A DNA stretch of 64,000 nt from Hydrolagus colliei (Eukaryota), in NCBI GenBank assembly GCA_035084275.1, contig CM068749.1, positions 13,392,001 to 13,456,000 of the forward strand. The letters are read 5' to 3'. The translations under genes were made by a program, and so were the position numbers. The notes below the pieces were generated by a model, which was not told the DNA's origin, did not search any database, and was given only the letters and a program-made list of their open reading frames with translations. How positions within the stretch are numbered: the stretch's first letter is position 1; the number at the start of each line of letters is the position of its first letter. Below are positions 13,225-56,880 of the stretch, piece after piece.

Positions 13225-13243
13225 GGGTCACACAGTCAACATG
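13225..13243 (+). CDS. Giant FN3 gene 19-nt micro-exon (GSHSQH)
   Basis: Strong ctgccttttctctttctgtttcag acceptor, G|gtaagt donor; phase 0 to 1, matching the first FN3 exon. Confidence 0.75.
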
Positions 13244-16200
13244 GTAAGTTTAAATTGCCTAATTTATCTCTTCTGTACGGGACTGTATTCAGATACAAGA
13301 AACACACCTTCCCGAAAGAATATTACTGTAGCTCCCTGCACATGAGTTTGTAAACTTATTGAGAGCTGATCAAATGGTCTGACAGTGGACTGCATTAAAA
13401 CTCATTCGTTTTCGTTTGTGAAACAGAATATTTCATTGGATATTTCCCATATATACAGTGCTGCACATGCAATTGTTTCTTTGAAGTCGTTTGTTACCAG
13501 AGGGTAAGAAATACCTCCTGGTTGCTAAGGTTGTTGCTGTGATCGCTTGTGTGTCTGCGGACTGTGGAGTTCTAGAGAGGGTCAGACTTTATGGTAGAAG
13601 CTGCAATGCTCAGGCTCAAATATACCCAAAATAGCAAATCCACCCCAAATAAAAGTTTCACATCTCGCCTGGGTGGCCGGTCACTCATGAAAAGGAATAG
13701 ATTAAATTAAATCAATTCTAGGAATTTACCGGTGAAAGACTATGTAACTCCCCTTGCCACCACCCCCACCCCTCCACACCCACCCCCCCATCCTGCCAAA
13801 TAGGCGTCATACAGTTGAAGTATTATTAAGAAAACAAGCTTTCAAAACTATATTCCACTCACTTTTCGCCTATGTCCTTTTTTATTTTAACATGAATTGT
13901 TCAAACGTTGATATTTTGATACATTTACTGTTAAAACTTTGAGTTTATTTCTAAAAAAAATTACCTTTTCACTGTTTTATTTCTCATTTTAAAAAAATCA
14001 GTGTTAGTAATTCCAGAGCAAGTGTTTGGAGATACTGAAGTTTTAATTACTTTTTATATAAATTACTAATGTATTGCATAAATAAAGGACCTGCTATTAG
14101 TTCAGGTCCTGATAAGATCCCTCTTTGCAGCGGCTGTATAACCTGTATCCACTATGCATACCCAATAGGACCTCTTACTAATGATGGTTTTTAAGGCTTT
14201 CAGTTCATTATAGTGCTGTATTAACGAGTTACTTGTCCTTTCTTATCTCTGACCTCAGGATTCTACTCCTTAGTTTATCAAACAAGATCCTGGATTTAGT
14301 TGTTTCCCTGGTTTTAGTGTGTTCATATGATTGGAGTACAGCTTCCAATTGCATTACCTAACCACTATTTTAACTTTCCAATTGTCTTATTAACTACTGA
14401 CCCTTATTAACTTACCATTGTTTGATTTTTCCTAAATCATTTTTACAATTTTGTAATAGCTAACCTTTTTATAAAAAAAGAGAGTGTTTGGCAAAACCTG
14501 ACATATTTTCCAAAAGCACGAAAGGATATTGCATTTGCCTGCAAACCATGAGATGAGTTGCTAAATGGATTGACTGTGGACATGTAGAAAATCTTCCTAT
14601 CCCACTGTCTCCTGAGAACAATGGTGTGAAATCCCCTCTCCCTTGTCTTCCTGTAGCCACTTTCCTTTGATAATACTTTGTATTCTGAACAGATTACATA
14701 CAGTAAAGGGACAGCCATAGAAACAATTGTTATACACCGTCACTATACTTGAAGGATTTTCTTGTCTTTAATTCCTACTGACCTGTAATAAGAATGTATG
14801 GTTGCAAACATGTTATCGATTCGATAACAACTTTTAAAAGAGAATTAGATCTTTATTTAGGGAGAACAGGTCTGTTAGGTTATGGGGAGAGAGCAGTACA
14901 GTGGGATTGAGTTGCTCTTTTCAAAGAACTGGCACAGACGAGATGCGACAAATGGCCTCCTTTTGTGCCGTAAAATTCTATGATTCTATGAAACCATATA
15001 AGCCCTATTTATAAAGAACCACTGTGTCATCTGGGTTGCTATTTCTTCTCAAATTCACTCATGTCCTGTCTCCTCAACTGTGGTGGATTTTTATGCAGCA
15101 ATAAAAAGAAAAATGACACCTTGACTTCAGTGTGAACCAATGTGACAAAAACTATTTGCATTTAAATAGTGCCCTGAACATAAATGAATGTGTCGGAGTG
15201 TTCATATTAATTGAAGAGCATTATTCAATGAATCTTTTACCACTATTTTCTAGCAAATAGTAACAATACCTCTGCGCATGTAACATATAATTCCATGCAC
15301 AGTGTTGGCTAACCATTATGGAGAATGATTTGCCTATACTGTTCATATTTCGATGTAATTAAAGGCTTCTTAAAAAATAGAGCTGTAGTGCCACCTAATG
15401 TTAGACTTATAGAATTCTACAGTGTAGAGGAGGAGCATTTTGCCTATTGTACTTACTTTCTCTGAAACAACAACTTGGATTTATATAGCGCCCTCCATGC
15501 CAGACAGCATCTCAGAGCGCTTGAAACAGGTATCACAAGATAATAAAAGATGCTCGGCCCATTTGATCTCCTTTCAGAATACCCAGCCCATTTAGTCCGA
15601 CTTCTGTGCCCATTTTCCTATACCCTGTTGTATATATAATTGCCGTGATTTATTTTGAAAAAGTGGGTCTTTTTATTTAAAGTATGCTATTGGTCATTTT
15701 TCATTCTGCATTCAACAGAATTTTAAGTCAGGATTATCCTTTGCTTTAGGAGTTCTTTCACCACATTGCTTTGTAAGGACAGTGAAAGAATACTGGAACT
15801 GTAGTTAAACAAGACATCTGGGTCACAATCTATTCAGTTTCTTACCAATCTCACAGTTTGTGGCGTTGAAGTTTTAACACAACCTTAGGTGAAAATAATC
15901 TATTTAGACTATACTCAAATATAATCGTTGAATTATAACACCATTGTATTGGTGTACAACATGTGAGACGTTAATATACAAGGTGTGCAAATTACAAGTC
16001 ACGTCAAATTTGTCTTGTTGTTTTACAGAGTTTGCCATCACAAAGATATCGTCAATATCATCAACTGAGTTAACTGTTTCATGGACACCTTTTCCCAAAA
16101 TTACCAGTTATATTCTTGACTTGAGGATTGTGAATAACACCAGTATTCCACCGGTTACGAGGGTGGCATATTCATTTCAAACATCTCGAAATATTTATGG

Positions 16201-19200
16201 GTTACGATCTGGAATGCTCTATAATGTGACAATCAAAGCTTTCAGATCCTTCCCTGTGGTTGCCATTGCTTGGAAGACAGGAAGAACAGGTAATAAGATC
16301 TTCACGTTCTTAAAAGCGTTTAGGAAAAGAATGAAAAGAAAAGAATCCCCATCATTTGTATTAGAGATGAGTACACTCCACACATCTGTCTTTTGTGTAA
16401 GACTGTCTTAACTCTCTAATGACAAGGTGACCGCCATGCAGTGATGACTCGTGTATTTTACTGAAGCTTGCCCAACAGGCTCTAAGGGCAGCTCTCTATT
16501 GGCAGAAGTTCGCAAGTTCTGGGTGATTGCGATTTCCTGTGGAAACTTGCAAGATCGTTGGTTACAACACTGGAGAAATAGCGCCAAAGAACCTGAAATA
16601 CTTTCAATATTCCGGACAGGTGCAAAAAAATAGTTGGCCAACAAAACTGAGTCATGCTGGATCAATTTGTTTCCAAAATAAAGACCAGTCTGATAGGGTA
16701 TGTGCTATCAGTGGAGCATTACCTCTGATGACTTTTCAGACACCCATTGGGCAAAAACGAATCAAGCCTAGAAAATAAGTATTAAACAAAACAATATTGC
16801 TCCCACAGCTACAATTTACAATACAAATACACCAGGCTTCAAAAACATCAGGCATCAGATGTGATCCAAAAGAAGGGTGACACCACTTTGCAGGAGCAGT
16901 GTGCTGGTGAACTCAACAGCTTGCGTCCTCACCCGTACCAAGTTCCGCGACCACATCACTCCCACCCTCGCCAGGCTGCATTGGCTCCCGATCCCCCAGG
17001 GGATCAAATTCAAGATCCTCATCCTTACTTTCAAGGCCATTCACGGCCTTGCCCTCTCCTACCTTTCTGACCTAATGTGCCCCTATTATCCTCCACACCC
17101 CCTCCATTCAGTGGGCTCCGGCCTGCTCCATGTCCCCCACCCGACCCACCCTAGCATCAGCAGATGGACTTTCAGCCTCTCTACCCCCACACTCTGGAAC
17201 TCCATCCCACAGTCCCTTTGCCTCGCTCCCTCCCTTGCCTCCTTCAAGATTGGTCTCGAGACCCTCCTCTTCAATTGTGCCTTCTGCTGCCCTCCCAAAT
17301 CTTTCCCTCCACTCCTAACTCTCTTCCACCCCTCTCCCCCCTACCCTGCCCCTCTCCCTTGCTCGGGTCCCGACCTGACTGTTCAGCCCCTTGGGACGTC
17401 CTCCCGACATGAAAGATGCCCTATAAATTTTATTTTGTTGTTGTGTTAAATGTCAAATGATTGCAAATTCAATCCTGTCATACTTGTGTCTGGCAGTAGT
17501 TAGCACATTAAAGATTTAACCTCATCATTTTAAATTAATTTTTAGCGCAAAATATGAAAATCGTATCCTACAGTTACATTATGCCTACGCGTTAGCAATT
17601 GTCTGTTGACTAACTTTTTAAAATCTTTTTATTTGTAAAGTGCCGAGAGGACCAACGATCGTCAGTTTGGCATCAAATGCAAGTTCATTTATCACTGCTG
17701 AATGGACAAGTGTAGTGGGAGCAGATTATTACATTCTGAATTTGAAATCCAAGGCCAGCGAATATAATTTTTCTTTTTATGATACCGAGGGAATTGCCAC
17801 AAAGTTGCACTCAGCCACTATCTACAATGTTGTCGTCTTTGCAGCAAATTCAGCTGGTGTTAGCTATCCTAGCAGAATGAAGCAAGTTGTTACGAGTAAG
17901 TTCCATTCACTTCTTCCAGATTTAAACAAAAACTCCAGTTAAAAATAAAATCCAGCCCAAATGCTATAAGACTTGCATGTACAGTACTGTACTTTACTTT
18001 GCTTAGTTTACAATTTAACATTAGAGGCATGTGTAAGCAAAATGTATCCATTAAACCATTGGGAATAACAAAGCTTCTATAATATTATTTACTATATGTT
18101 TATTATTTAGTGAAAACATATTATAGTTTGAACAATTAAATATGATTTCACTTTTCTCGTTACAGTGATAAGACCTCCAAATGACTTCAGAGCTACAGCT
18201 GTTAACCAAAGAACTGTCAACCTAGAATGGGATCCATTGCCTAGAGCATTGAAATTTGGCATCACTGTGTACACAAATTCCAAAGAAGTGGCCATAATAT
18301 CAAAAGAAACATTTAATAATTTCATACAACTATCAGGACTTGAACTCTGTACCCAATACACCATTACACTGAAGTCAATGAATGATTTTGGCCTTTTTGG
18401 TGAAGGCACTTCACTATATTATGCAACTGAAAGTAAGTAATATGTACAATTTGTTTTGCACTCTATGATGAAGTGACTTTATTGCATTATATATTGAATA
18501 ATATATTGGAATGTATTATTCAAACTTAGTTAATGTTCCTCAAAGCAACACAGTCTACATTTGCTATCCTGGAGCTAATGAGCTGTGAAATTTACTGTGA
18601 CCACACCATTTACTGACTCAAACATACAGAGGTCTCCTCAGACATTTTTTTATTTGCCTCTATTGACCTCCAGGCTGGACAGGAATGCCTGATTTTGATA
18701 TGCAGTTTGCTGAACTCAGGTGTTTCATATATTGTCAGTTTCACTTCTTAATCAGATGATTTTAATTTGAGATCAAAATAAATGATCGATTTCTTTGTGA
18801 ATTTCTTTCTCCACAGCCTTGAAACCAGTAGTTAATCTGGAAGCAGTTTACAATTGCACTGGGGGTTTAGTGGAAGTATCATGGCATGCAAATCCCCTGG
18901 CAACATCTTACAAAGCAATTGCTAGAAGCGAAAGAGGTGTCACTAAGCATTGTACATCATCAACAACCAACTGTAGAATAAATGGCCTCCATTGCCACGA
19001 AAAATATGCCGTAACAGTTGTGGCAGAGAACCACGACTGCACTGGTGCCGAAAGTCACAGTGTTGCATTTGATACTGGTATGTTTTATTCAATCAGCAGA
19101 TGTTTCATTATGTTGTACTTATTTTTTAGCAAGTTAACCTGTACACTAATTGTTTTGTGGAAGCATGCTTGTTTTCTTACGGGAGGTACTACCCACAATT

Positions 19201-22200
19201 TTGAAACAATGGTTTATTTCTTCCATTTGTGGACATTGTGTGAGCCCACAACAAGCGGTAGTGTGTTTTAATACATCACGTCGTCCATCACAGTCACATT
19301 TCAGCATGAACAATTTGGCACAGTTTCATCGAATCTCAATAATGCTCTCAAAGTTTGGTGATTCTACCATGGCTCAAACAGTAGAGCTGGTTTGTTGGTG
19401 GCAGAGCATTGTTTCAGCTCCAGTCTATTGCTTCAGGCGATTAAAAGCAAAATATTGATATTTGTAATAATTTGTAATTATTGTAGAATCGTAGAAATAT
19501 ACAGAACTGTAGGAGGCCATGTGGCCCATGAGACCACACCGACTTTCACAGGAAGGTAATCAATCAATCCCACTGCCCTACCTTATCCCCATAACGCTTC
19601 AAGTTGGTAACCTTCATATATTTTATATGAAACACTGTGACGAGAGCATAGAACTAGGGCATTTACCACAACTGATCCATGCTGGTTAGAATGTTTATAC
19701 TTCACTCTCGTACATCCCTATTCTCTTCTCACTTCATGTATGGGTGATTTGACTAATTGAAGTTTATTTTGTACCTGATTGATAACTATTATTTTCCTTT
19801 GTCATTCTTACAGAACCTTGTGCTCCTCAGAGTTTGCAAATATCTCGTGACTGCCACGTTAACAGTGTGCAAATCTCCTGGACTGCCAGCATGGGTGCCC
19901 TCTTTTACCGAGTAAATCTATGGTCATCTGACGGAATAAAAGATCAGTGTCACACAAGGGGGATCTCCTGTTTATTTCCCTCTCTACCGTGTGGACGGAA
20001 TTTCAAATTGAATGCATTGGCCATATCAAGCAGCAGCTGTCACAGCAACGTCAGTGACACAGTTGAAATAAACACAGGTAATAACCAACCCACAGCAAGC
20101 AGTTCATGTAAAGTTTGGGATTTCATGGTGGAGCCTCACTTCAAAACTGAGTTAGGTTAATTTGCGCCGGACAACTATTTAATAAGTAAGATTCCATCTT
20201 AGAGATGGAATCATCATGATCTTCCATCAACTTAGAGATGTGCTCAAGTTACTTCTCAACCAGCCCCCAAGGTGCCCTCACAGTGATTCTCCTAACTTCT
20301 CCATCGTTGTTCTGGGAAGGCACCTGCAGTGTAAAGCTCTACCTCAACCTATAAGACTATTTTAAATGCTGTCCCAATCTGCAATCTGGTGCAGATTGGT
20401 GGAAAGCAGTCAACTTCCAAATTAAGAACTGATTAAAGAACTACTGCACTTTTGCACAATTATAATTTGAAAACAAAGACTATGGGGCTTCTGGGTACAT
20501 CCTCAAAGCTGAGATTGGCAACTCAGTAGAGCAAGAAAATAGATTTATATATAACTACATTAGATACAGTATTTTGGAGCTCTGTTTTCATTCTCCCAAC
20601 ACAAAATGCTAGCCCAAATCACGGTATAATAACTGAAGTGAGATCTTGAGGTCTATAAGTTGTCTTTTTCTGGTGTTCCTGCTGTCAGAGAGACTAGTTT
20701 CTATTGAACAGCAGATCCAGACATTATGTTTTATTAAAGATTCTTTATGTACAAGCACGTTGGTCGACTCACCTATTTTGCTTGCTTTCCAGGTCCCTGT
20801 GTACCCCAGCAATTGAAAGCTACCACTGATTGCAAGTCGAACGTAAACATTTTGTGGGAGACAGCAGAAGGAGCCCTGCAGTATGAAATTGAGGTCATCG
20901 GAACTAATCATATGAAATACAACTTCACCACTTCTACCAACGCTTTTGCACTCCACAATTTGCCATGTGGGACTGGTTTTGTTATATTTGTTAGTGCTAA
21001 CAATAATGAATGCAACAGTGGTAAATCTTATTATGCCATTGCAGAAACAGGTACAGTACAGCATAGATGATTTTTGTCCCATTTGACTAGCAGTTGCCGT
21101 TGTTTGGCATTTACAGATTTAGATTTGAAAGCCTTGTCTGTTTTTATATCATTCCAAACATGTGTTTTCCTCTTCTACAGAGCCCTGCACCCCTGAGAGT
21201 GTCACTGCTCAGATGAACTGTAATACTAACATAGCAACTGTTCTATGGAGAAAGTATGATGGTGCATTCATTCACTCGGTCGTTGCTGAGGGAATTAATG
21301 GAGATCAATTTACGTGTTTGGGAGGTGATACGACCTGCCAGCTACAAGGACTGAGCTGTGGCGAGATATACGTTGCTACAGTCATTGCTGTTAATTTGAA
21401 TTGCAACAGTTCCCAAAGTGCTCCTGTCAATATTCAAACAGGTGATTCTCTCCTGCAAGTTAAAAATGAAAATCTACATTTGTTCTGAAGAGGCTGAATA
21501 TCCCATTCATTCTGTGATCAGAGATGGGAAAATCGTATTTGGAGTTTAAAAAAACATAGAATAGTCGGATGCAGATGGACTGAAATTCTGTTCAGCTTTA
21601 CCTAGATCAATAGGCCTCCTGCTTCTCCCTTGTGCCCTCCATTCCACCATCTGTGGGCTGCACTTTGAGCCACTATGCCCCAAAACTCTGGAATACTTTC
21701 CCTCTATCCCTCTACTTTGTCCCTCCTTCCCCATTTTCAGATCACGCCTAAAGGCCTTCATCTTTGACCATGTCTATGGCCACCTCCTGCTTCCACCCGA
21801 CTGGGCATTGTGCTCTGCCACTGTCGAGTGCTCTGGGAAGCTACCTTGCATGAGGAGCGGTATATAAATGCAAGTTCTTGTTGTTGTTATAATATTGGTT
21901 GCAAATGGGATTCCAGCATTGAAAATTCTGGTTTGATCCTTAATTGAGCACTACTAAAAGCATTAAGTGCATTGCCAAATGGAATCTCAGCCCAAAGAGT
22001 TTTAAATATTTTATTACTTTGTAGCAAAGGTTCTTTGCAACAATCTTTAGATTGGCTTTTTATCTGCACTGATTTCAATAGAGTAATTTAGTTCTGTTTT
22101 AGCCATTCTTTAATATTTCAAACACTCCTCCCCCTCCCCCCATACCACCTCACCCCAACCGAAATCTGTAACTCAGTACAAAATGGCTTGAAACGTGCAC

Positions 22201-44000: not shown

Positions 44001-47000
44001 AAGTGATTTGAACCATTTAGAGGATGTGCAAAGCGCTCTATCAAATGCAAGGATTATTATTATTATTAAATTGCAAAACCTAAACCATTATATTGTGACT
44101 CACAGTTGGAATTGCATCTGTTTTTGCTTTTATATCATTGCAGAACCCTGTATCCCAGAGAACGTTACGGCTTTTGTAGACTGTGCATCCAATGTTGCAA
44201 TACTGTCATGGGATCCAAGTCCTGGAGCTGATTCATATGTTGCAACTGTAAATGGAAGCAGTGGCCAGAGATTGTCATGTAACACAACAGAAATAAACTG
44301 CGAAATTCCAGATCTGCCATGTGGCGAGTATCACATGGTGATTGTCAAAGCGCTGGCTGATCACTGTAACAGTTTACAATCTTCGGAATTAGAAATTAAA
44401 TCAGGTATTATTATCCTCAATTTCAATCTGACTGTGATCATCTGAAGTAGATGCAAAACAAATTACACAAAGCAATGCATTTTACAAAATAATATTGGGT
44501 GATGCTGAGTCAAGTAGGAAGGATTGATCATTTAAGAAACAGTTAGATGCTGTAACGAGAAGAGGATAGGTCTGATGTTTTGGAAATCAAATGTACAGAA
44601 AGGCCTTCTTCAACCAAACATCTCTGGTGAGCTTGTAACTGAGTTATTCATTACTGTTATATCATTCAATGCATAGGTGAATGTGTTAAAACACTTACAA
44701 TAAATTGTTTTTCTATTTGATGATGTGGATTAATATAGGGTGAAGCAGCTCATGGAACCTCAGCATCAAATATCATGCATCAAAATCATTAAAGGTGTTG
44801 AAAAATTCAGATGGATCTGGAAACGTACAAGTTCTAGAATTTCAATGACCCATGCTGTTCTGTGTCCTAATTAACATTGGCAACCTTGTAGGATGAAAAA
44901 CACTCTTCTAAAATGTTTGCCTCCTCCTTAAAGATAGGTCACTACCAATATGACATGACTTATCTGGAAGTCTGGCTCTCGGTTGATGGCAATTCACTTC
45001 TGAAGCAAAGGGTCAAAATTAGGTCAAGATTCAAATTTCAATCTTTTCAATGGGAGTTGAATACATTAGACGTTATGGGAATGTCTAGATTAAATGATTA
45101 TTTAACAAAGTCCACTGATGTTAGTTTCGTTCACTTTCATTTTTACTCTTCCCAAAAGTACCCTGTCCGCCTCAGAATGTGGAAGTTGTTTTGGAATGTG
45201 AGAACAACACTGCCTTGGTAGTGTGGGATCCATGTAATAAAACAGTGATGTACACTGCATTAGCAAAAGGGAGTGATGGACACACAGCTCTATGTACCAC
45301 ATCCGATGCATATTGTGAAATATCAGATCTTCATTGTGGACTAATGTATAGTATCACTGTACAAGCCTTTGACGACAACTGCAATGGAAGTGAAAGCATG
45401 ATTTATGAAATTCAGACAGGTAAATATATGTTCATTGGAATGATTTATACCCCATGTATTGCACTGGACACATTGCATAAATGAGAGAAAAAGCATATGA
45501 TATTGTGATGGGAAATACCTTAGAAGGCACCAGTTTTGTATAGATTAGATGCTCGATCAGTGGGGGAGTTAAAGATAACAACAACAACAAAATTACACTT
45601 GTACAGCGCCTTTCACTTCAGGAGGACGTAAACGAGGTGTACAAATGGTATCAAATCTTAAAATTGTTTTGAAAAGATGGTAATGATATAATACAGTTAT
45701 TTTAATGTTTTGTGGAAAGATCCACATAGCAAAAAGTAGAAAGAATTGTTTTACAGTGGCTTATCACATCAAAACATCAACAAATATTTCACTGGTAAGT
45801 CACATCAAGTGGAGTGACTGTTTTTGTATGCCAATTCTACAAGGTTCCCGCAACCATCCAATAGGTGAAAGACCAATTAATCCGGAGGGCTGTTGTCAAA
45901 AACAAACGTGTTTCTGCTTTCTGATTAGTGTCAAATTATCTTTAGCGGCCAGATGGCTTAAAATCATATTCAAAAGACAGCGCTCCCAACATCGCAACTC
46001 CCACCTTCCTACCGTCAGAGTTTTAAACCAAGTACAATCTTCTGACCAAGCAGCTACCAATTGACCCAAGGTGATTCATGTGCATCACATTAAGGTGTAA
46101 TGTTCGAGTGGTCACATTTCCTGAAAAACAACTGAGAGCAAACTGAAACTGAAATTATACAGTAAAATAATTAAATTCCACAAATTGGAAAAGTTACAGA
46201 ACAATAGCAGACAATAGGGAAATAAGGAAATATGCAGTTAATATATTCCAAGTCAACTGTATTCATTTAATTAAATAATCAGCGCAACCTATCATTTTTA
46301 TTAGATATGATTAAATGCACCCTGGGCACTACCCTGGACAAGGGGCGCTATATAAATTCAAATTGTTGTTGTATTAATTCAAATTGTTGTTGTATTTTTT
46401 CCCCTCTTATTTCCTTTCTTCAGCACCATGTATGCCAGAAGAGTTTACTGCTCACCTGGAGTGTAATTCTAACACAGCAATAATCTCATGGGTGCAAAAT
46501 AATAGGACAGAATCATATGTTGCAACTGCAGAAGGATATGATGGACATACTCATTCATGCCAAACAACAGGGCTAAGCTGTGAAATTTTCGACCTGCACT
46601 GTGGACAGACTTATACTATAACTATCACTACACTAAGTGAAAAATGTAACAGTACTACAAGATCATTTGTTGAAATCACAGCTGGTAATAATTTCTTCAA
46701 TTCCTAAAGTGATTTATAACTATGAAAAATATATTCCCATTGTTCAATTAATGTATTTACAGGACATTACCTGAACTGATATTCATTCCTATTTATCTTC
46801 ACCAGCACCATGCATTCCTGAGAATGTAGTAGCTCAGCTGAACTGTGACACAAATACTGTAATAATCATATGGGATCCAAACATTAGAGCACAATTATAC
46901 AGTGTGATTGCTGAGGACAGAAGCGGAATTCTAACTTCATTCAGCACATCAGCTACAGAAGCTCAAATTTCAAACTTGGAGTGCGGTGAGAAGTATGCCA

Positions 47001-50000
47001 TTTCTGTGCTGGCCACAGATAACACATGCAACAGTTCCCAAAGTGCAGCAATTAACATGTACACAGGTAAAATTCATATTCATTAAGCATTTTTATGTCT
47101 CTTAACACACAACGTATTCAAGAGGCACTTTGTGAACGGCATATTGTTTTTGCTATGTTTTCCATTTGCTTGGTGAAAATATAGAGTTGGTTTGAGAAAG
47201 AGGCCCCATGATACAATTATATTTTCTAATGAATGGAAACATCTGTGCTTATGTAAGATATATATCTGCATATGTGAATTATTTAGTCATTATAATATAA
47301 GAGCCGAACTAGGCAAGGTCCTCGAAAATTTAACTGAGAGGAGAGGCGTATTAAACAATAAGCAATTAAACAATATTGAAATAAAGGTAATATGATCCCT
47401 GTCTTGTTAATAACATGTTTATGATTTAATTTTCTTTCTAGTTCCTTGTATCCCTGAAGCGACAGAAGCCTTTGTGAACTGTTTTACCAATGTTGTTTCA
47501 CTTCATTGGATACGGACTAAAGGTGCAAATTCATACCTTGTCACAACTGAAGGACGCAATGGCACCATTTCTGTGGACACAGTAACAAGCATACCCTTTG
47601 AAGTTGAAAATTTAGAATGTGGAGAGACATTTACTTTAAGTGTAACAGCACAGGGTGAGACATGTGACTCTCCGAAGGGCTCAAATGTTGACATAGAGAC
47701 AGGTAAACAATTTATTTCACAGATGTTCTGATTGAAAGTAGCATCCATTACTCTTGATAAAGGCTTGTGTCCATCTGAAGAAGCAAAAGCACTGCTGAAT
47801 AGAAAATTCTAAATAATTTGAGAAACTGGACAGTACTTGTACTTCCTAAATAAAGCAACATATTGTAGAGTAAGACCAGTCAAATACGAGTAAATGTTGG
47901 TGAAACAAATATTGCATTTAATCAGTGTTGTAAACTGATGTTGTAAACGGCACAGATTCAAATTAGAGCCACATCCAGTTCGACATTTTGAAACAAAAAA
48001 GCTTCTCCAAATGCATACAACCTCTTTGAAAGAGTCACCTCCCACAGGATGCTATTACAGAATGGAAACCCTACAGCACTACAAGTTATCAAGTATTTTT
48101 CCATATCCATAATGTTTAATATATTAAGTGATATAGTGCAGGTTTTATTTGCCATTCACTTTCTCTTTTGTTTAGAAACTCAAATATGACAGATATGCTC
48201 TACTGTCCTTGACTATCAGATAAATTTACCACTGTACAGTATTGTATATTTGAAATCTGTGGTCTTCTATGCATTTTAAACTTCCATTTCCTTTGTTTAA
48301 TTCTAGTCCCATGCGGTCCACAGATGATAAATGTAATTGTGGATTATGAGCTAAACACTGCCCAAGTGTCCTGGAATCAAAGTAAAGGTGCTAAATCGTA
48401 CTTTGCAACCGCTTTAGGAGATAACTGGGACTTTCTTTCATGCCGTACCTCAGAAACATCCTGCACACTACCCGTGTTATCTTGTGGCATGATTTATTCT
48501 GTGCTTGTCTATGCATCTAACAACAAATGCAATGAGTCGCAGAGTACAGCAGTTACAATCAGTTCAGGTAACATCACTTTTCGGTGATTAAATTAGTATG
48601 TTAATCAAGTAGAATCCCAGTTTAGAATCAGTATAATGTAAAGCACAGAAGAAGGCCATTCAGCCCACTATGTCTGTGCCAGGCCCCTTGAACAATCCTT
48701 TTAGTCCTACTTATCTGTCTTTTCGCCATATCCCTGACTCCAGGTAAGCAAGATGAACTGCATTAGAAGCAACAATAGAATATTTTTTTTTTTGAATTGA
48801 CCAAGTAAAAAATGACCAGAGAAGTGGTTTTAAGTTTTCAATAGATCACTATTATACATTTACTGTCCAACATTTTCAATACTAAAAAATAGAGGATGCA
48901 TATTTTATTTTTAGCTTTCATGTCACATTTGTATAAATGTTTGCATTTAAAGTAAATGCTGAATATGTCTTAATTTATGTCTCCTGTTTCTGAACTTTCA
49001 GCTCTATGCAGGCCCCAGAATGTAAGTGCTTCCGTTGACTGTCACAATAATTCAATCTTAGTAAATTGGGTGGAAAGTGAGAGAGCAATATTTTATACTG
49101 CATTTGCCGAAGGAATGGAAGGAGACAAAGTTTCATGTGAAGCAGAACACTCATTTTGTGCACTCACAGGACTCCTGTGTGGAGAGATTTACAGCATAAC
49201 TGTTTTTGCGATCAATGACCAAGGTAGCAGTTTACCAAGTTCTGCTATTGATGTTGAAACAGGTAAAACTATGTTTATTCTTCGGAAAATTAACAGAAAG
49301 GCAGAGGTGTTCGTAATGATGCTACATATTAGAAATGAATCATTAGTTTGTAATTAAATAAATGTTCTATTGAAATATCAGTTTTAAAAAAATAACTTTT
49401 ATTTGATTCTGATCGAATTTTTAGTTTCTCTATTTACTGCTTTGAAAAGTCTTCTGGGATCAAAAGAAACATTTGTTGCGATGAGGTTTTAATAATTGAT
49501 GTTGTGACTGCTAATTTTGCTAAAGGAATTTAAGTTGCAAATAGATGTAATTAATTATTTAATAAAAAACTGTATTTAAAATTTTAATACTGCCTTCTTG
49601 TGTTGCAATCGTCATTGTTTTAATAATAAGGGACCATGTTACTATCAAAGAAATGCAACTTTAGTCACCTGTGGTAATAAATGTATTTTTTATTCACAGT
49701 TCTCTCATGTGATTTCTTCTGTTTACAGTTCCATGCACCCCACAGAATGTAACCGCTTCCCTCAACTGTGATACTAACGATTTGTTAGTTTTATGGAATC
49801 CTGGTAATATCACAGAGACATACGTAATAACAACAGAAGGAAATGATGGGTCATTTACGTCATTCAATGAAACAGAAGCTAATACTACAATTTCCAATCT
49901 GCCTTGTGGACAGACATATTATATACGTGTACAGGCAATCAGCTCCCAGTGCAACAGCTTAGTAAGCTCTGCTGTTGACGTCAGATCAGGTAGCAAGGAA

Positions 50001-53000: not shown

Positions 53001-56000
53001 ATCAGCGTTCAAGGCTGCTCTCTCAACCTCTCGAAGCCAATCAGGAATCTGGGCATCTTGTTCGACCCCAAACTACCCTTCCTCCCCCACACCCACTCCA
53101 TGACCGGCACAGCCTTCCACCACCTCCGCAATATTGCCAGACTCCGCCACTACCTCACCCCCCATGCCGCCAAAACTCTCATCCACGCCTTTATCACTTC
53201 CAGGCTTGACTACAGGAACTCTCTCCTCATCGGCCTTCCTAGCTCCTCCCTTCACAGGCTGCAGATCATTCAGAACCCTGCAGCTCAGAATTCTACTTTC
53301 CTGTACCAGACTTCGTGACCACATCACTCCCACCCTCACGCGTCTCCACTGGATCCCCATCCCCCAGAGAATCGAATTCAAGATCCTCGTCGTCACTTTC
53401 AAGGCCATTCACGGCCTTGCCTCCGCCTATCTCTCTGACCTGTTGTCTCCCTATCAGCCTGCCTGCCCCCTCTGTTCAGCAGACTCAGGTCTGCTCCGCT
53501 TCCACCGCCCTAACTGCCCAAACATCGACGGCCGGGCTTTCAGCCTCTCTGCTCCCACACTGTGGAACTCCATCCCGCAGCCCCTCCACCTTGCCTCCTC
53601 CCTTTCCTCCTTCAAGGCCAGTCTCAAGACCTTCCTCTTCAACCGCGCCTTCGGCTGCCCCACTAACTCTTCCCCCTTTGATTCCCCTTCCCTAATCAAT
53701 ATGTCAAACTTTTATTTAACATACTTCCTCTTTGATGTTTTCTTTTAGCCTATTCATTTCAGCTGTAAGAATGATTCTGATACCATATTGTTTTCAATTA
53801 TACAATCTTAATGCCATGAACAGATTTTCACTTAATTCATCATTCTGTATCCTGCACCAAATATCTTTGATGGACATGTTTGAATATATCTAAACAAGCA
53901 GGTGAAATGCCTTATCAGTCCAAAAAATAAGTTTGGGGTTAGAAAACAATTTAATTAAATAAGGCATTCAAGAAATTTTCAGGTTTTGACATCAGGACTT
54001 GTCATCTGCATATTCAGACATTTTTATCCTTGAAATTAAAACTTATGACAGACAGAGTACTAGTCATCAAATGGATTGGATTACAATCTTTTTTTAAAGG
54101 CTTTGTGTACCTTAATAGTACAAAACTTTAATTGTATACATTTTTAAATCTTGTTTCAGTTCCTTGTCCTCCAAAGAACTTCACTGCAGTTGCAGAAAAC
54201 AACACTCTATCATTGTCATGGATGGAGTCAATCAATGCTACAGAATATATTGTGTATGCCGTCTCTAGTTCAGCTAATATTCAAATATGCAGAACACCAC
54301 AGCTGTATTGTGAAGCTGAAGCAAATAGTTACAACACAAATAATGTTGAAATTATTGCATCAAATTCTGTTGGTGAAAGTGAACCCAGCGTTATCAATGT
54401 CTTGCAAGGTAAGTTTTCCTGCACTAAAGACAACTGAGTTATCAGGAGGATAATTCTCAGCACTTCATAGGTATTACTGTAAATAGAATCACTGTATTTG
54501 TAAGTAAATATCGCAGCAAATGGCACAGGAATGTCCTATAGTGATAAAACAATTAACAATTTTATTTGGGGGATTGTAGGCCAGAAGAAAATCTCTTCTC
54601 TTTTCAAATAGTGCAATGGGATATTTAACGTCTACCTGAACCGGCAAAAACTTAAATTTAATATCTCATCAGAAGAGACGGCACCTCCAAAAATCCAACA
54701 CACCCAGCACTAAATTTGGAATGTTATTTTTAGGCTATATGAGTTCAAGTCCCAATGTGGAATTTGAATACTCTTACCTTCTGACTCAAGGAGAGAATGA
54801 GTCACATTCCCCAGCACCGTTCACATAAGCAATAAGCAAAAAAACACAGATAGTGGATATATCTGAGCAAAAGCGAAATGGACAGACTTGAAGGAAATCA
54901 AAAGCCCAGTGAAGTGATTTTAAAGGATTGAAAAGGTACATTTTCAGAAGTTTTGAAAATGGGAGGATGGGAGGCTGAGATTTTGGAGAGTTCCAAAGAG
55001 CTACCATTGGTGGGCATACACACATTCCTAAATTTGCAGAGATAAGGAATTAGGCAGGAATGTGGGACTGGGGGAAATTACAGAGGTAGTGAGAAGCCAT
55101 AGTGTAGAGAAATTTGAAGATCAAGAATCGTGCAGTTGATCATTGAGAAACAGGTAGCCAACAGAGCCCGGGAAGGACAATTAACTGAAATTTGTAAGAA
55201 TAAAAATCAGAAAAATTTCTAATGAAATATATTCTGAAATTAATTTTGTCTTAGCAATCAATAGAAATTAATGGCAAAACACATGTTCCAAAACATTCTA
55301 GAGGCTTTATCTTCCTGAATGTTTGTCAAATCTTGAGTTTGAAAATGGAAGAGCAGTTGCCAAAATATTACTTGCAAGTGATATGATGAACACCTCAACT
55401 CTATTCCACTACCAAACAATTTTTCTTATAGTAATTGAACTTTAAAGTAGATTCTAAAGTAGCACAAGTTATTTCTAGACATGATAAGCAAAGGCAATGT
55501 GTTTTCCTAGGAAATTGAACATTTATTTATAAAGACACTGCATGTATAACACTATCATGTAATGTTTTAATTATCAAGCACTGTTTCACAAGTTGTCTGA
55601 GGACATTCACGATTGCTAACCATAATATTGATTTGTGTTTTTAAGCAAATGTTTACTTTGTTTTAATAATACAGGGAGACATCATATTATCATTATAATT
55701 TTGAGGCCGAGGAACAAATTATACAATGCCTCTTTGAACAACGAAGGTAATTCATTTTCATAAATGAGAATTTATAAGGAAACACGTATAAATTAGCTTT
55801 ATATCTCAACATTTTTAATTTTTGGTAAACTTCACTGCTGAGAAATAGAACAATTTTGTACATTTGGCATCGAAGCAATCACAAGCCACATATTGTAATT
55901 ACAAGCTCCAAATTTTTACAGGGCAGAGAAAAGTTCAAAGCACCATTTAAAAAAATAATCACATAAAAGCACCCAATTTGAATCTCTTGATTATCCATAC

Positions 56001-56880
56001 CAACTAACATAGGTGTGATCGCCAATATTTAGTGCTAAATTGTCAGTTAATAATCTTTGCATTTGATATATAGCACACATCTTCTAAACATCTCAAAGCG
56101 CTTCACAAAATATCTTGTAATATTTACGGGTGAAATGCATATTTACGGGTGAAATGCAGCAGCCAATTGCGTACAGCAGTGTGCCACAACCAGTCATGAA
56201 TTGAAATGACCAATTTTGTTTTGAGGGATTATTATTAGGTGTGGAGTAAGGAAACTTACCCAAGATTTTGCCCTGCCTGGAATCGAACCCAGGTCTCTCG
56301 CTTGCAAAGCAAGTGCTTTTAATCACTGAGCTACAGGACTCCAAAATGGGGAATATACATCAGTAGTGTTATTATTATGGTAGAGGCTAATCTTGAATCG
56401 TTCTATTGTCCTCAGGACCTCCAACAATATAATAGAGCATGATCTAAGTTGTTTGCCTTCTGAGCCATCCTAATTAATATGAGTTCACAAAGATGCTTTT
56501 GGAACAATAATTTTGCCAATTGGAGAGAAAATGCATTTTAAGTTGGAATTTTTTTTAAAAAAAGTTCAGATGGTAATCGTTGAATTTTTTTTCCAGAGCA
56601 TCTTTCCCCTCCACAATTGTATTTCATTGAAGCCACAAGTGACTCGGTGCATGTGAAATGGTTCCCGGTAGATGGTGCAGAGTATTATACTGTGATAGTG
56701 AAAGAAGATACCACTGTGATTTCAAAACCATTTAAACCCATTGTAAAATCAGTTCAAACAAACTACGTCCAAGTGAACAACCTTTCACCTGAAACACAAT
56801 ACATCGTTCTGATATCAGCTAAAAACTCAGCTGAAAGCAGTCAATGCTCTGAGGTTAATTTTGTAACAAGTGATGAATGA
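13225..56880 (+). CDS. Giant FNDC7-related secreted protein, 46 intact Cys-rich FN3 modules (~4,050 aa); resembles fish fndc7-related-sequence genes
   Basis: 19-nt micro-exon, then 45 intact phase 1-1 FN3 exons of 249-288 nt, a 72-nt linker exon and a terminal FN3 exon with stop at 56878-56880. All junctions GT-AG; ~12.15 kb coding in the listed exons. FN3 signatures (W in strand B, Y in C, L-x-C-G-x-x-Y-x-V/I-x-V-x-A) recur through the modules. Confidence 0.9.
14825..14992 (+). mobile_element. CR1-type LINE 3' tail
   Basis: ttttaaaagagaattagat...ggttatggggagagagcag...aaatggcctcct...ttctatgattctatga terminal microrepeat; reverse-oriented relatives near 15410-15630, 19485-19600, 48630-48740. 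Confidence 0.7.
16029..16289 (+). CDS. Module M1 (EFAITK...GRT), Cys-free FN3
   Basis: AG/GT, 261 nt. Confidence 0.88.
16925..17450 (+). mobile_element. LINE2-type 3' fragment (RT C-terminus DHITPTLARLHWLPIPQGIKFKIL plus tail)
   Basis: Typical L2 ORF2 C-terminal peptide; tail gatgccctataaat...ttgttgttg. Confidence 0.85.
17641..17895 (+). CDS. Module M2 (VPRGP...VVT), Cys-free FN3
   Basis: AG/GT, 255 nt. Confidence 0.88.
18166..18432 (+). CDS. Module M3 (MIRPP...ATE), 1 Cys
   Basis: AG/GT, 267 nt. Confidence 0.88.
18817..19077 (+). CDS. Module M4 (TLKPV...FDT)
   Basis: AG/GT, 261 nt. Confidence 0.88.
19814..20077 (+). CDS. Module M5 (EPCAPQ...INT)
   Basis: AG/GT, 264 nt. Confidence 0.9.
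20793..21050 (+). CDS. Module M6 (GPCVPQ...AET)
   Basis: AG/GT, 258 nt. Confidence 0.9.
21181..21441 (+). CDS. Module M7 (EPCTPE...IQT)
   Basis: AG/GT, 261 nt. Confidence 0.9.
21620..21887 (+). mobile_element. Degenerate LINE2 3' tail
   Basis: ctctggaatactttccct...aaggccttcatctttgacc...tataaatgcaagttcttgttgttg. Confidence 0.6.
22215..22511 (+). mobile_element. tRNA-derived SINE, near full length
   Basis: B-box gggttcaattcc, body ccttactccacac...gactgtttgtgggacactgc...ggctgccgcatttcgcccac, tail aaatgcaaggattattattat. Confidence 0.8.
22820..23086 (+). CDS. Module M8, type A (VPCVPQ...IET)
   Basis: AG/GT, 267 nt. Confidence 0.9.
23385..23648 (+). CDS. Module M9, type B (ATGCMAQ...TET), 4 Cys
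   Basis: tgaaccag acceptor, gtactg donor, 264 nt. Confidence 0.8.
24032..24292 (+). CDS. Module M10, type A (VPCPPK...LKT)
   Basis: AG/GT, 261 nt. Confidence 0.9.
24385..24670 (-). mobile_element. LINE2 3' tail, reverse orientation
   Basis: caacaacaacatcaaattacatttatattgtggcctttcac...purine-rich gagaggaagggatgaagttccatagggtggg is the reverse of the 17150-17450 tail. Confidence 0.65.
24875..25139 (+). pseudogene. Module M11, type B pseudo-exon
   Basis: 265 nt (+1 frameshift after CMPQ, giving a stop) and donor acag|ATactg instead of GTactg. Confidence 0.85.
25401..25661 (+). CDS. Module M12, type A (EPCAPQ...LET)
   Basis: AG/GT, 261 nt. Confidence 0.9.
26543..26803 (+). CDS. Module M13, type A (VPCIPQ...LKT)
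   Basis: AG/GT, 261 nt. Confidence 0.9.
27050..27296 (+). mobile_element. LINE2 3' tail
   Basis: tggaattccatcccacaatccctttgccttgctccctccc...aaggcgctctgcaaatgtcattttgttgttgtt; closely resembles 17190-17445. Confidence 0.75.
27378..27641 (+). CDS. Module M14, type B (VLECKPQ...TET)
   Basis: tgaatcag acceptor, gtactg donor, 264 nt. Confidence 0.85.
27927..28187 (+). CDS. Module M15 (VPCVPLNVNADLDY...LQT), lacks Cys2
   Basis: AG/GT, 261 nt. Confidence 0.9.
28500..28760 (+). CDS. Module M16 (VPCVPQ...GERYG...LET), lacks Cys6
   Basis: AG/GT, 261 nt. Confidence 0.9.
28935..29270 (-). mobile_element. SINE (Deu-like), reverse orientation
   Basis: tcaaagcacttcacagg...gtcccaaaacagccatg...gaatagtgccagggcatct...gggcttgaacctacaatcctatgactgagag. 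Confidence 0.65.
29501..29764 (+). CDS. Module M17, type B (DLNCMTQ...TKT)
   Basis: tgaatcag acceptor, gtactg donor, 264 nt. Confidence 0.85.
30886..31146 (+). CDS. Module M18 (copy of M15), lacks Cys2
   Basis: AG/GT, 261 nt. Confidence 0.9.
31459..31719 (+). CDS. Module M19 (copy of M16), lacks Cys6
   Basis: AG/GT, 261 nt. Confidence 0.9.
32474..32737 (+). CDS. Module M20, type B (ALDCLPQ...IKT)
   Basis: tgaatcag acceptor, gtattg donor, 264 nt. Confidence 0.85.
33652..33912 (+). CDS. Module M21, type A (VPCAPQ...IKT)
   Basis: AG/GT, 261 nt. Confidence 0.9.
34221..34484 (+). CDS. Module M22, type B (VMDCMPQ...IET)
   Basis: tgaaacag acceptor, gtactg donor, 264 nt. Confidence 0.85.
34934..35194 (+). 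CDS. Module M23 (VPCPPQ...FQT)
   Basis: AG/GT, 261 nt. Confidence 0.9.
35253..35291. repeat. Perfect 17-bp inverted repeat with 5-nt spacer, TTAA at both ends
   Basis: tttaaccatcgcacagc-tgcac-gctgtgcgatggttaaa. Confidence 0.9.
35425..35679 (+). CDS. Module M24 (VPCPPE...FST)
   Basis: AG/GT, 255 nt. Confidence 0.9.
36419..36679 (+). CDS. Module M25 (EPCAPQ...IKT)
   Basis: AG/GT, 261 nt. Confidence 0.9.
37536..37790 (+). CDS. Module M26 (APCKLQ...MES)
   Basis: AG/GT, 255 nt. Confidence 0.9.
37850..38000 (-). mobile_element. SINE 3' fragment, reverse orientation
   Basis: ataatccttgcattcgatagagcgcctt...gtcccacaaacagtcatg. Confidence 0.75.
38373..38633 (+). CDS. Module M27 (APCAPM...LQT)
   Basis: AG/GT, 261 nt. 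Confidence 0.9.
38958..39218 (+). CDS. Module M28 (APCIPQ...VNS)
   Basis: AG/GT, 261 nt. Confidence 0.9.
40233..40493 (+). CDS. Module M29 (APCTPL...MQT)
   Basis: AG/GT, 261 nt. Confidence 0.9.
40709..40969 (+). CDS. Module M30 (APCIPQ...IRT)
   Basis: AG/GT, 261 nt. Confidence 0.9.
40983..41016. repeat. Compound (CT)n(AT)n microsatellite
   Basis: tctctctc...tatatata just downstream of the M30 donor. Confidence 0.85.
41560..41820 (+). CDS. Module M31 (APCTPE...IHT)
   Basis: AG/GT, 261 nt. Confidence 0.9.
42591..42851 (+). CDS. Module M32 (EPCAPQ...IHT)
   Basis: AG/GT, 261 nt. Confidence 0.9.
43498..43767 (+). CDS. Module M33 (APCEPT...IET)
   Basis: AG/GT, 270 nt. Confidence 0.9.
43890..44070 (+). 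mobile_element. SINE 3' fragment
   Basis: gtgactgtttgagagacattgctgtacgcaattggctgctgcg...tcaaatgcaaggattattattattatt. Confidence 0.75.
44144..44404 (+). CDS. Module M34 (EPCIPE...IKS)
   Basis: AG/GT, 261 nt. Confidence 0.9.
45159..45419 (+). CDS. Module M35 (VPCPPQ...IQT)
   Basis: AG/GT, 261 nt. Confidence 0.9.
46424..46684 (+). CDS. Module M36 (APCMPE...ITA)
   Basis: AG/GT, 261 nt. Confidence 0.9.
46806..47066 (+). CDS. Module M37 (APCIPE...MYT), 4 Cys
   Basis: AG/GT, 261 nt. Confidence 0.9.
47442..47702 (+). CDS. Module M38 (VPCIPE...IET), 4 Cys
   Basis: AG/GT, 261 nt. Confidence 0.9.
48307..48567 (+). CDS. Module M39 (VPCGPQ...VDYELN...ISS), lacks Cys2
   Basis: AG/GT, 261 nt. Confidence 0.9.
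49002..49262 (+). CDS. Module M40 (ALCRPQ...NDQGSS...VET), lacks Cys6
   Basis: AG/GT, 261 nt. Confidence 0.9.
49729..49989 (+). CDS. Module M41 (VPCTPQ...VRS), 4 Cys
   Basis: AG/GT, 261 nt. Confidence 0.9.
50119..50379 (+). CDS. Module M42 (APCCPQ...LKT), 7 Cys
   Basis: AG/GT, 261 nt. Confidence 0.9.
50662..50922 (+). CDS. Module M43 (ASCAPQ...IIS)
   Basis: AG/GT, 261 nt. Confidence 0.9.
51433..51693 (+). CDS. Module M44 (APCPPY...VGA)
   Basis: AG/GT, 261 nt. Confidence 0.9.
51987..52274 (+). CDS. Module M45, divergent longer FN3 (VPCAPQILQ...GVT)
   Basis: AG/GT, 288 nt. Confidence 0.88.
52535..52843 (-). mobile_element. tRNA-derived SINE, reverse orientation
   Basis: Reverse head ctcctgtagctcgatggttagagtactcgcc...; body and tail like 56047-56343. 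Confidence 0.8.
52900..53690 (+). mobile_element. LINE2-type ORF2 3' fragment, frameshifted
   Basis: WMRANFLQLKVNKTEALLIG, RNLGILFD, LRNIARLR, IHAFITSRLDY, DHITPTLTRLHWIPIPQRIEFKIL, GRAFSLSAPTLWNSIP; frame change near 53290. Confidence 0.92.
54160..54408 (+). CDS. Module M46 (VPCPPK...VLQ)
   Basis: AG/GT, 249 nt. Confidence 0.88.
55675..55746 (+). CDS. Putative 72-nt linker exon (GRHHIIIIILRPRNKLYNASLNNE)
   Basis: tacag acceptor, AAG|gtaatt donor, open frame, phase 1-1. Confidence 0.5.
56047..56343 (-). mobile_element. tRNA-derived SINE, full length
   Basis: Reverse head gagtcctgtagctcagtgattaaaagcac...gggttcgattccagg (Pol III A and B boxes); tail aaatgcaaagattattaa; internal 19-bp tandem duplication 56120-56157. 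Confidence 0.88.
56597..56880 (+). CDS. Module M47, terminal FN3 exon (EHLSPPQ...VTSDE*)
   Basis: ttttttccag acceptor, FN3 motifs VKWFPVDGAEYY / LSPETQYIVLISAKN, stop TGA. Confidence 0.88.

Follow-up and report, generated by a model that had tools for sequence, protein, structure and literature searches.

Canonical FNDC7 consists of 8–9 FN3 domains and a short basic tail. FN3 domains, seven-strand beta-sandwiches that have a strand-B Trp and a tyrosine corner and are each ~3.5 nm long, also form the arrays of fibronectin, tenascin and titin, which are typically disulfide-free and unfold under load; such arrays are the standard example of domains unfolding under force. The closest described systems to the gene reported here are the fndc7rs giants (gar LOC102685057, 4,576 aa; Misgurnus fndc7rs1, 4,241 aa; Pleurodeles, 5,160 aa; zebrafish fndc7rs1/2/4), for which no functional study was found. 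These names are database labels without a curated definition, and the features used below were drawn from relatives. The window, a stretch of 64,000 nucleotides of Hydrolagus colliei DNA, contains a gene of this kind. Its size is not news, since databases already contain the gene, in uncharacterised or broken models. What is new is that cysteine covariation, a sequence signal, points to neighbouring FN3 domains being joined, in a natural protein, by double disulfide staples; given that FN3 arrays normally unfold under force, an array locked in this way would be mechanically novel. Narrow-phrase searches of the open-access literature found no paper on inter-domain disulfides in FN3. In addition, a full-length chondrichthyan fndc7rs model is now supplied.

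Gene Structure and Fold

A profile made from the window's own FN3 exons was searched against the window, with the reversed window as a control. It recovered 53 FN3-like stretches, all on the plus strand (47 in the giant, 6 in an upstream gene), while the control gave a single match (E 5.5). The features of the locus, with predicted splicing, are:

283..4699, +: upstream FNDC7-type gene, 3' part; 6 FN3 exons, then the small exons 4546-4575 and 4665-4699 up to the stop
12993..13046, +: exon 1, coding part; ATG, hydrophobic signal peptide, phase-0 donor; similar to the N-termini in gar P0005 and paddlefish P0169
13225..13243, +: exon 2 (19 nt); signal peptide end and mature chain start
16029..16289, +: M1, basic FN3 (net +8), Cys-free; closest to module 1 in 5/5 full-length relatives compared
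17641..17895, +: M2, Cys-free FN3; nearest to FNDC7 module F1
18166..18432, +: M3, one conserved EF-loop Cys, its presumed partner the M4 FG-loop Cys
18817..19077, +: M4, first Cys-rich module (5 Cys, without C2)
19814..21441, +: M5 (19814-20077), M6 (20793-21050, 4 Cys), M7 (21181-21441); old, position-conserved
22820..24292, +: M8 (22820-23086), M9 (23385-23648, 4-Cys type B), M10 (24032-24292); young expansion begins
24875..25139, +: M11, type B pseudo-exon; 1-nt insertion, donor GT changed to AT
25401..27641, +: M12 (25401-25661), M13 (26543-26803), M14 (27378-27641, type B)
27927..28760, +: M15 (27927-28187, without C13), M16 (28500-28760, without C74); compensating Cys loss across the junction
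29501..29764, +: M17 (type B)
30886..31719, +: M18 (30886-31146), M19 (31459-31719); 97.8% copy of the M15-M16 block
32474..35194, +: M20 (32474-32737, type B), M21 (33652-33912), M22 (34221-34484, type B), M23 (34934-35194); young expansion ends
35425..44404, +: M24-M34, six-Cys core; M24 (35425-35679), M25 (36419-36679), M26 (37536-37790), M27 (38373-38633), M28 (38958-39218), M29 (40233-40493), M30 (40709-40969), M31 (41560-41820), M32 (42591-42851), M33 (43498-43767), M34 (44144-44404)
45159..45419, +: M35; BC-loop seventh Cys, partnerless under the pairing rule
46424..49989, +: M36 (46424-46684), M37 (46806-47066), M38 (47442-47702), M39 (48307-48567, without C13), M40 (49002-49262, without C74), M41 (49729-49989); colinear with P0046
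50119..51693, +: M42 (50119-50379, extra Cys3), M43 (50662-50922), M44 (51433-51693); colinear with Heptranchias P0041
51987..52274, +: M45, divergent, strongly conserved family-signature module; FN3 fold, no Pfam match
54160..54408, +: M46, last tandem module
55675..55746, +: linker exon, 24 codons, without R-x-K/R-R
56597..56880, +: M47, terminal FN3 and stop; one unpaired Cys
57439..57444, +: candidate polyA signal, first AATAAA 3' of the stop
59679..60843, -: PRP38-family gene (which we take to be PRPF38B), last exons, RS/charged tail; convergent with the giant

The giant gene is real, with corrections to its first model. Predicted splicing gives 49 exons encoding 4,068 aa with 46 FN3 modules, the 48 GT-AG introns joining one open frame with one signal peptide and one stop (codon 56878-80). 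Single-exon modules joined by phase-1 introns, as the first-pass annotation described them, are found in the 45 open exons M1-M10 and M12-M46 (phase-1/phase-1, GT-AG). The start that it gave, 13225, has to be moved: this is exon 2, and the ATG with most of the signal peptide lies upstream in exon 1. Its 47 modules correspond to the 47 FN3 stretches, but M11 is dead: its length of 265 nt, where its five paralogues have 264, puts it out of frame, its donor reads AT where GT is expected, and no rescuing exon between M10 and M12 scored above -2.4, which leaves 45 tandem and 1 terminal coding modules. Skipping M11 preserves both the reading frame and the Cys pairing. The surrounding M8-M23 block is the only recent local expansion in the giant, and dN/dS was below 1 in 60/60 young module pairs (range 0–0.94). 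At the N-terminus, M1 and M2 do lack Cys, but the Cys-poor modules number three, M3 having one; this M1-M3 head is basic (pI 9.5). The short linker followed by a terminal FN3 was read correctly, as a 72-nt exon and the stop-bearing M47.

The earlier picture of a secreted, glycosylated FN3 rod without a transmembrane segment was likewise supported. The highest 19-residue hydropathy (1.72) falls within a core module, and no credible exon was found 3' of M47, where the best splice score was 1.0 against 13.1 for the linker exon. N-x-S/T sequons recur (86, ~2 per 100 aa, versus 62.9±6.8 in 500 shuffles, maximum 88). The product computed from the model has ~436 kDa before glycans and a pI of 4.7. 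As to the fold, the Pfam FN3 domain (PF00041) matched 13 of the 14 giant modules tested (E≤0.1), W22 is invariant, and the best PDB sequence matches are 1fnf (E 1.7e-17) and titin. The predicted model of M25 (pLDDT 94.4) has an FN3 fold with TM 0.83 to fibronectin FN3. The only Pfam miss was M45, rightly singled out as divergent, yet it too adopts an FN3 fold (pLDDT 93; VIA Z 12.7, rmsd 1.8 over 88).

FN3 exons account for the whole model (Pro 3.8%) and leave no room for other domains. Thus, neither a Pro/Thr/Ser tract nor the vWD, C8 or CK domains of gel-forming mucins were found in it, nor RGD (count 0), FN1/FN2, EGF or fibrinogen domains as in fibronectin and tenascin, nor the ZP domain and TM or GPI anchor of ZP cupula or tectorial proteins. 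With 46 FN3, the last of them a terminal FN3, the giant is not a canonical FNDC7 either; the short, basic tail, presumably the FNDC7 tail, is present in the upstream gene. That gene appears to be of canonical FNDC7 type, a name that rests on this tail and a colinear match to the N-terminal part of carp P0156.

Relatives and Orthology

Among ray-finned fishes and amphibians, giants with the same ends are already in the databases (one of them under the name fndc7rs1); the entries for sharks and rays are fragments. Nine of the top 10 library matches have 4,030–5,143 aa and 43–58 modules, with end modules common to them. Named matches came from fishes and amphibians only, with 0/35 in amniotes (word-seeded searches with length limits). 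The nearest relatives are elasmobranchs (57% identity over M44-M46, clade support 100/99), 7/7 of which are annotated as 800–1,070-aa pieces; the window copy is their sister, outside them on a long branch, which would be a holocephalan-like position. It has a signal peptide, three Cys-poor N-terminal FN3, a long core with C2, C13, C45, C52, C59 and C74, and near the C-end the signature modules M45 and M46, orthologous by tree. By these sequence features the window giant is orthologous to the fndc7rs giants of fishes and amphibians and represents them in chondrichthyans. A position directly downstream of canonical FNDC7 was seen in the window and in one other species only, in the carp fused model P0156.

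The proposed paralogy to FNDC7 was supported: FNDC7-type Cys modules score 34–62 bits on the core profile, on which FN3s from Cys-poor proteins reach 35 at most and have their 95th percentile at 25, and M2 and M4 match FNDC7's N-terminal modules in order. The giant may have arisen by expansion of FNDC7, or FNDC7 may be its short sister. The duplication is old, since the giant is common to chondrichthyans, ray-finned fishes and amphibians, and the recent expansion is limited to M8-M23. A furin-type R-x-K/R-R, which the first-pass annotation overlooked along with the inter-module disulfide pattern, is found at the linker of 17/27 relatives and, being common but not universal, was not treated as defining; between M46 and M47 of the window giant none occurs in any plausible exon. 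The terminal FN3 is present in the window giant and was found in 0/6 amphibian models. In bony fishes, a furin-type cut would release this last FN3, perhaps starting assembly.

Expression and Possible Role

Zebrafish fndc7rs4 gives a ring of in situ signal in the mantle, A/P and polar support cells of the neuromast (PMC6363392). Its probe primer encodes a motif of M45 type, which 10 relatives carry only near their C-end; fndc7rs4 is apparently the 3' end of the zebrafish counterpart of the giant. Zebrafish rs1, rs2 and rs4 are listed as separate genes; they share one gene module with fndc7a (PMC9851615 suppl.). These three and the shark 'FNDC7-like' pieces may be fragments of one gene. The zebrafish datasets were pre-selected for neuromast and ear cells, so they give no test of specificity. 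A paddlefish 'FNDC7' transcript, 33-fold more abundant in operculum than in fin (PMC5429088 suppl.), may be the short FNDC7. The one protein named in a study of the salmon ear cupula is a 45-kDa ZP protein, on a 12% gel that would not resolve 450 kDa (PMC4219815).

On these data lateral-line support cells would secrete the giant as a load-bearing filament of the cupula jelly or matrix, a role that we regard as plausible, at somewhat short of even odds. Cupula stiffness sets the flow sensitivity of the neuromast, and with the giant one of the structural parts of the cupula gains a candidate that has a name and can be tested. The same rod might instead serve water-dwelling vertebrates more generally, as a scaffold in the mucus of skin or gill, in egg jelly or in the egg case. 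A fish and amphibian range fits mucous skin as well as lateral line, the giant is acidic and carries ~2 sequons per 100 aa, and two relatives carry the automatic label 'mucin-4-like'; but it is FN3 end to end, and all expression reports found concern neuromast or ear. The mucus or egg-case role suggested by the first-pass annotation received no direct support, and we consider such a scaffold unlikely. Less probable still is a niche matrix, basal or pericellular, that surrounds the stem and mantle cells of the neuromast and in which the giant would act as a rigid spacer or ligand and not as an apical gel filament. The ring pattern is common to hopx, cmah and alpl, with low expression in central cells (PMC6363392), and fndc7rs fall in module 1 while the known ear-gel genes otog, otogl, tecta, tectb and zpld1a fall in module 4 (PMC9851615 suppl.); nevertheless, the model lacks RGD, and a 160-nm homopolymeric rod without a globular binding domain would better suit a structural filament.

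Probable Disulfide Staples Between Modules

Cysteine covariation was measured over 2,187 adjacent core-core junctions in 121 proteins. C13 of one module covaries with C74 of the next (phi 0.85), and C59 with the following C2 (phi 0.48), whereas the reverse-direction controls gave 0.13 and -0.01; since modules are related by descent, p-values for this covariation would overstate it. Modules without C13 have a C74-less successor in 119/133 cases, compared with 24/2,054 otherwise, and modules without C59 a C2-less successor in 7/8. After clustering at 50% identity, the staple rule is still kept in 42/51 clusters. Within the giant, all 3 C13-less core modules directly precede the only 3 C74-less ones. 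The predicted single-domain fold places C13 and C59 at one pole and C2 and C74 at the opposite pole, as cross-junction bonds require. The C59-C2 staple draws on 8 C59 losses, next to 19 C2 losses without C59 loss. From this pattern it is very probable that two of the three disulfides join neighbouring modules, C13(n)-C74(n+1) and C59(n)-C2(n+1). Were all three intra-domain instead (C2-C74, C13-C59, C45-C52), the chain would be flexible beads on a string. This is geometrically possible, each pair lying at the same pole of the single-domain model, but C13-C59 (phi 0.05) and C2-C74 (phi -0.01) show nearly zero covariation, and an intra-module rule orphans 304 of 4,374 Cys positions compared with 58 under the staple rule (11 mismatches versus 3 over the 42 junctions of the window), which makes it very improbable.

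In the stapled rod, each core domain would keep one internal disulfide, C45-C52. The AB-loop C13 would bond to the FG-loop C74 of the next domain and the EF-loop C59 to the C2 of the linker that follows, and Cys30 in the BC-loop of M45 may take the staple from C13 of M44. Such a double staple would fix the inter-domain angle and prevent strands A and G from being pulled apart. The product would be a stiff, nearly inextensible, unfolding-resistant, acidic and N-glycosylated filament of ~160 nm (46 x ~3.5 nm). Bundling or cross-linking of rods might be the task of the basic head and of the three spare cysteines; both stiffness and assembly are predictions.

A single transcript for the whole giant is highly likely. 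That the locus makes several shorter proteins, or exon-skipped length variants, is most doubtful: annotation is fragmented in 7/7 elasmobranchs and zebrafish, loss of a symmetric phase-1 exon keeps the frame, M11 is a dead module, and with several weak acceptors (M33 -0.4, M9 3.5) skipping is possible, but no second signal-peptide exon or internal stop was found in the locus, deposited fragments start and stop within modules, rs1, rs2 and rs4 are co-expressed, the 4,708-aa relative P0165 is transcript-like, its contig of 14.7 kb leaving no space for introns, and skipping M15, M16, M39 or M40 singly would leave free Cys.

Building on the demonstrated exons, fold, orthology and covariation, the best overall explanation (one gene, an orthologous fndc7rs giant, a stapled FN3 rod and a lateral-line role) is nearly an even bet as a whole. 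A broader proposal is decidedly speculative: fndc7rs would be a single ancient jawed-vertebrate giant gene, encoding a matrix filament of a kind not described before, a rigid and inextensible, doubly stapled FN3 chain that forms stiff cupula fibrils, its length tuned per lineage by exon duplication, and lost in amniotes with the lateral line.

Comparison with Known Systems

Like the fndc7rs giants, the window copy has a signal peptide, three Cys-poor FN3, a long Cys-rich core, the M45/M46 signatures and no TM, and lies downstream of an FNDC7-type gene (cf. carp P0156); it differs in lacking the linker R-x-K/R-R of 17/27 relatives, in its own M8-M23 expansion and, from the amphibian models, in keeping the terminal FN3. 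The elasmobranch 'FNDC7-like' models (Heptranchias, Cetorhinus, Stegostoma, Rhinoraja, Narcine, Pristis, Hypanus) have modules colinear with it, but as pieces of 800–1,070 aa, whereas the window gives a full-length model. Canonical FNDC7 shares the Cys-poor N-terminal modules followed by modules with C2, C45, C52 and C59, is the closest FN3 type to the core and shows the C59-C2 staple pattern by eye; absent from it are M45, the terminal FN3 and the C13/C74 pair, and it has 8–9 modules plus a short basic tail.

The fibronectin, tenascin and titin arrays share the tandem FN3 fold, but neither RGD nor EGF, FN1/FN2 or fibrinogen domains occur in the giant. Fibrillin cbEGF rods are secreted, module-per-exon and junction-stiffened, and a furin-removed C-terminal domain gates their assembly. 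The analogy is functional, as the fold is another one and the junctions are fixed by calcium, not by inter-domain disulfides. Otogelin, the tectorins and ZPLD1/cupulin are large secreted glycoproteins of hair-cell support cells, as the giant would be, and cupulin is furin-processed (PMC4219815); these proteins are, however, built of vWD and ZP domains, not FN3, and belong to a co-expression module separate from that of fndc7rs.

Gene model of the giant and its neighbours

The DNA of the window is AT-rich and of vertebrate type. With a profile built from the window's own exons, 53 FN3-like stretches were found, all on the forward strand, six of them upstream and 47 in the giant; in the reversed window, which served as control, the best match had an E value of 5.5. 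The first-pass annotation had placed here a secreted rod of FN3 modules (M1 to M47). The FN3 gene is real, but its module count and its start needed correction, since M11 is a dead exon and the ATG lies further upstream. The main features are:

283-4699, forward strand: FNDC7-type gene
12993-13046, forward strand: first exon of the giant, with the ATG and a signal peptide
16.0-56.9 kb, forward strand: modules M1 to M47
55675-55746, forward strand: linker before the terminal FN3
56268-56340, reverse strand: Rfam tRNA match (44 bits) within a repeated element

The joined model, based on predicted splicing, comprises 49 exons, 48 GT-AG introns and a single stop, and encodes 4,068 aa. M1-M10 and M12-M46 are open exons bounded by phase-1 introns on both sides; the start first proposed corresponds to the second exon, of 19 nt, and the N-terminus resembles those of gar and paddlefish. 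Pfam matched 13 of the 14 giant modules tested, M25 and M45 adopt the FN3 fold in predicted structures, and dN/dS is below 1 for 60/60 pairs among young modules. Neither a TM segment nor an RGD motif is present in the 4,068-aa model, which carries 86 sequons against 62.9 ± 6.8 in shuffles (n = 500) and combines a basic head (pI 9.5) with an acidic core (pI 4.6). M11 measures 265 nt versus 264 in five paralogues, its donor is AT, and a search for alternatives found no exon that rescues it. Its loss looks recent; by dN/dS (0.51-0.71) it is not separable from live modules.

We take the upstream gene to be FNDC7, and the downstream one is presumably PRPF38B, of which Pfam confirms PRP38 only. The clusters found in atlas searches were generic FN3 and FNDC7 ones; they are not discriminating and give the upstream gene no name. 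In this gene, the fourth Cys-type exon is followed by what appears to be a GC donor (1519-1525). Two introns of the giant (16930-17310 and 52880-53680) contain reverse-transcriptase 3' remnants with 77% mutual identity, which we assume to be LINE-like. The element with the tRNA match has related copies near 22248-22506 and 52543-52844 and is probably a tRNA-derived SINE.

Cysteine covariation and probable disulfide staples

Six Cys positions recur in the modules (2, 13, 45, 52, 59 and 74). Their covariation was analyzed in 2,265 adjacent module pairs from 121 Cys-rich proteins, reduced to 2,187 by removing 78 pairs with terminal or FNDC7-type modules; kinship among modules inflates these counts. 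C45 varies with C52 of the same module (phi 0.89). Across junctions, C13 covaries with the following module's C74 (2030/24/14/119, phi 0.85), as C59 does with the following module's C2 (2160/19/1/7, phi 0.48). The intra-module pairings C13-C59 and C2-C74 gave phi values of 0.05 and -0.01, and the reverse-direction controls 0.13 and -0.01. Among clusters of C13-less modules, 42/51 precede a C74-less module, against a background of 6.5%, while 16/51 are without their own C74. Within the window, compensating C13/C74 losses occur at M15/16, M18/19 and M39/40, representing two independent events.

The ends of the giant would fit the same rule through variant partners, M3 C59 with M4 C74, and M44 C13 with the conserved C30 of M45. 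Applied to the mature chain, the rule pairs 222 of 225 Cys and leaves three free. Two bonds across every junction would produce a stiff rod of ~160 nm, resistant to unfolding. The basic head might bundle such rods, and in relatives with the motif a furin-type cut might gate assembly. The FNDC7-type gene also has the C59/next-C2 pattern, reaching a Cys in a short tail exon. One staple may be ancestral, in which case mammalian FNDC7 would be the place to test it.

A furin-type motif follows M46 in 17/27 giants (15 of these 17 have the terminal FN3) and in 1/7 elasmobranch pieces; it was found in 0/6 amphibian models and is absent from the window copy. The window linker has a five-Ile run and an L-R-P-R motif where the furin site would be, and its lineage may have switched to another protease or to no cleavage. 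Amphibian giants and the loach fndc7rs1 (library models P0159, P0009, P0167, P0170, P0171, P0011 and P0173) stop directly after M46, with neither furin motif nor terminal FN3, reflecting either real loss or model truncation.

Relatives and module expansion

All core modules except M11, M18 and M19 (38 of 41) went into the core profile. At E<=0.001 it picked up 21,456 proteins of the library, for the most part generic FN3, and the ten best include nine of 4,030-5,143 aa with 43-58 modules. Searching with the gar C-end yielded 27 giants (20 from ray-finned fishes, six from amphibians and one other), two of which bear the name fndc7rs1, and the closest fragment yielded nine matches, including seven from elasmobranchs that are pieces 800-1,070 aa long. 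No amniote appeared among 35 named matches from two word-seeded and length-limited searches. The locus is less unique than the first-pass annotation supposed, as giants with the same ends are already in databases; mechanistically, it is more interesting.

In a tree of M44-M46 (31 rows), the window copy is sister to all seven elasmobranchs (support 100/99), and amphibians and chondrosteans form separate clades. The giant therefore predates the split between cartilaginous and bony fishes. The closest outside relatives are FNDC7-type modules, at 34-62 bits versus an outgroup 95th percentile of 25. The library also holds Cys-poor FN3 giants of up to ~7,300 aa with 43-78 matched modules (P0037, P0040, P0045 and others), which served only as outgroup. 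The window's gene order, FNDC7-type then giant, is seen also in a fused carp model (P0156). M47, searched against proteins of up to 2,000 aa, gave 2/26 candidates, none an fndc7rs protein. An apparent FNDC7 tail in the library protein P0018 was rejected as a chance motif.

M4-M7 have positional orthologues, as does part of M32-M44. Since the core modules do not correspond one-to-one to gar or newt modules, the idea that the core has a fixed ancestral order was rejected. M8-M23 group only with one another and represent a recent local expansion. A 997-bp block at 27876-28872 and 30838-31831 is 97.8% identical between copies, a pattern suggestive of gene conversion or of recent unequal crossing-over. 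An assembly artefact as the source of the M15-16/M18-19 duplicate is disfavoured by its 21 differences in ~1 kb and by the adjoining part of the units, only 72% identical. Type-B modules (M9, M14, M17, M20 and M22; 23385-34484) have lost the C45-C52 pair, have a shifted and weaker acceptor, and recur at intervals of 2-3 units among six-Cys modules.

Expression in relatives and possible role

Expression data come from species other than Hydrolagus colliei, several concerning the short paralogue. In zebrafish (PMC6363392, including rows of supplement files 1, 4, 5, 7, 8 and 11), fndc7rs4 expression is ring-shaped, covering support cells of the mantle, A/P and polar types, and fndc7a is a support-cell marker; the zebrafish sets cannot show specificity of expression. 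Translated, the rs4 reverse primer gives a motif that 10 relatives have solely in their M45-type module, close to the C-end, which makes rs4 the probable 3' portion of the giant; the forward primer motif had no match in these relatives. In one supplementary file (PMC9851615, supp2.csv), the gene coordinates of rs1, rs2 and rs4 nearly coincide, and all three share gene module 1 with fndc7a; otog, otogl, tecta, tectb and zpld1a belong to gene module 4, apart from fndc7rs. Excerpts of two further papers use fndc7a as a neuromast marker (PMC11328412; PMC11789645). An FNDC7-labelled transcript is enriched 33-fold in paddlefish operculum (one supplement row, PMC5429088), and mouse Fndc7 138-fold in cochlear support cells (one table, PMC5137903). 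The sole protein named for the ear cupula in an excerpt of PMC4219815 is a 45-kDa ZP protein, and the main text of a catshark paper has 0 mentions of these genes (PMC11979771).

Tentatively, the giant could well be a filament of the cupula or neuromast gel. A mucus or egg scaffold is unlikely, and a niche matrix more doubtful still.

Comparison with known FN3 proteins

The fndc7rs family is already in databases, named but unstudied: one open-access study uses the name 'fndc7rs', and among the open-access papers listed none was found on the size, structure or function of this sequence family. The locus is an additional member of the family, and its stapled architecture appears to be new among FN3 rods.
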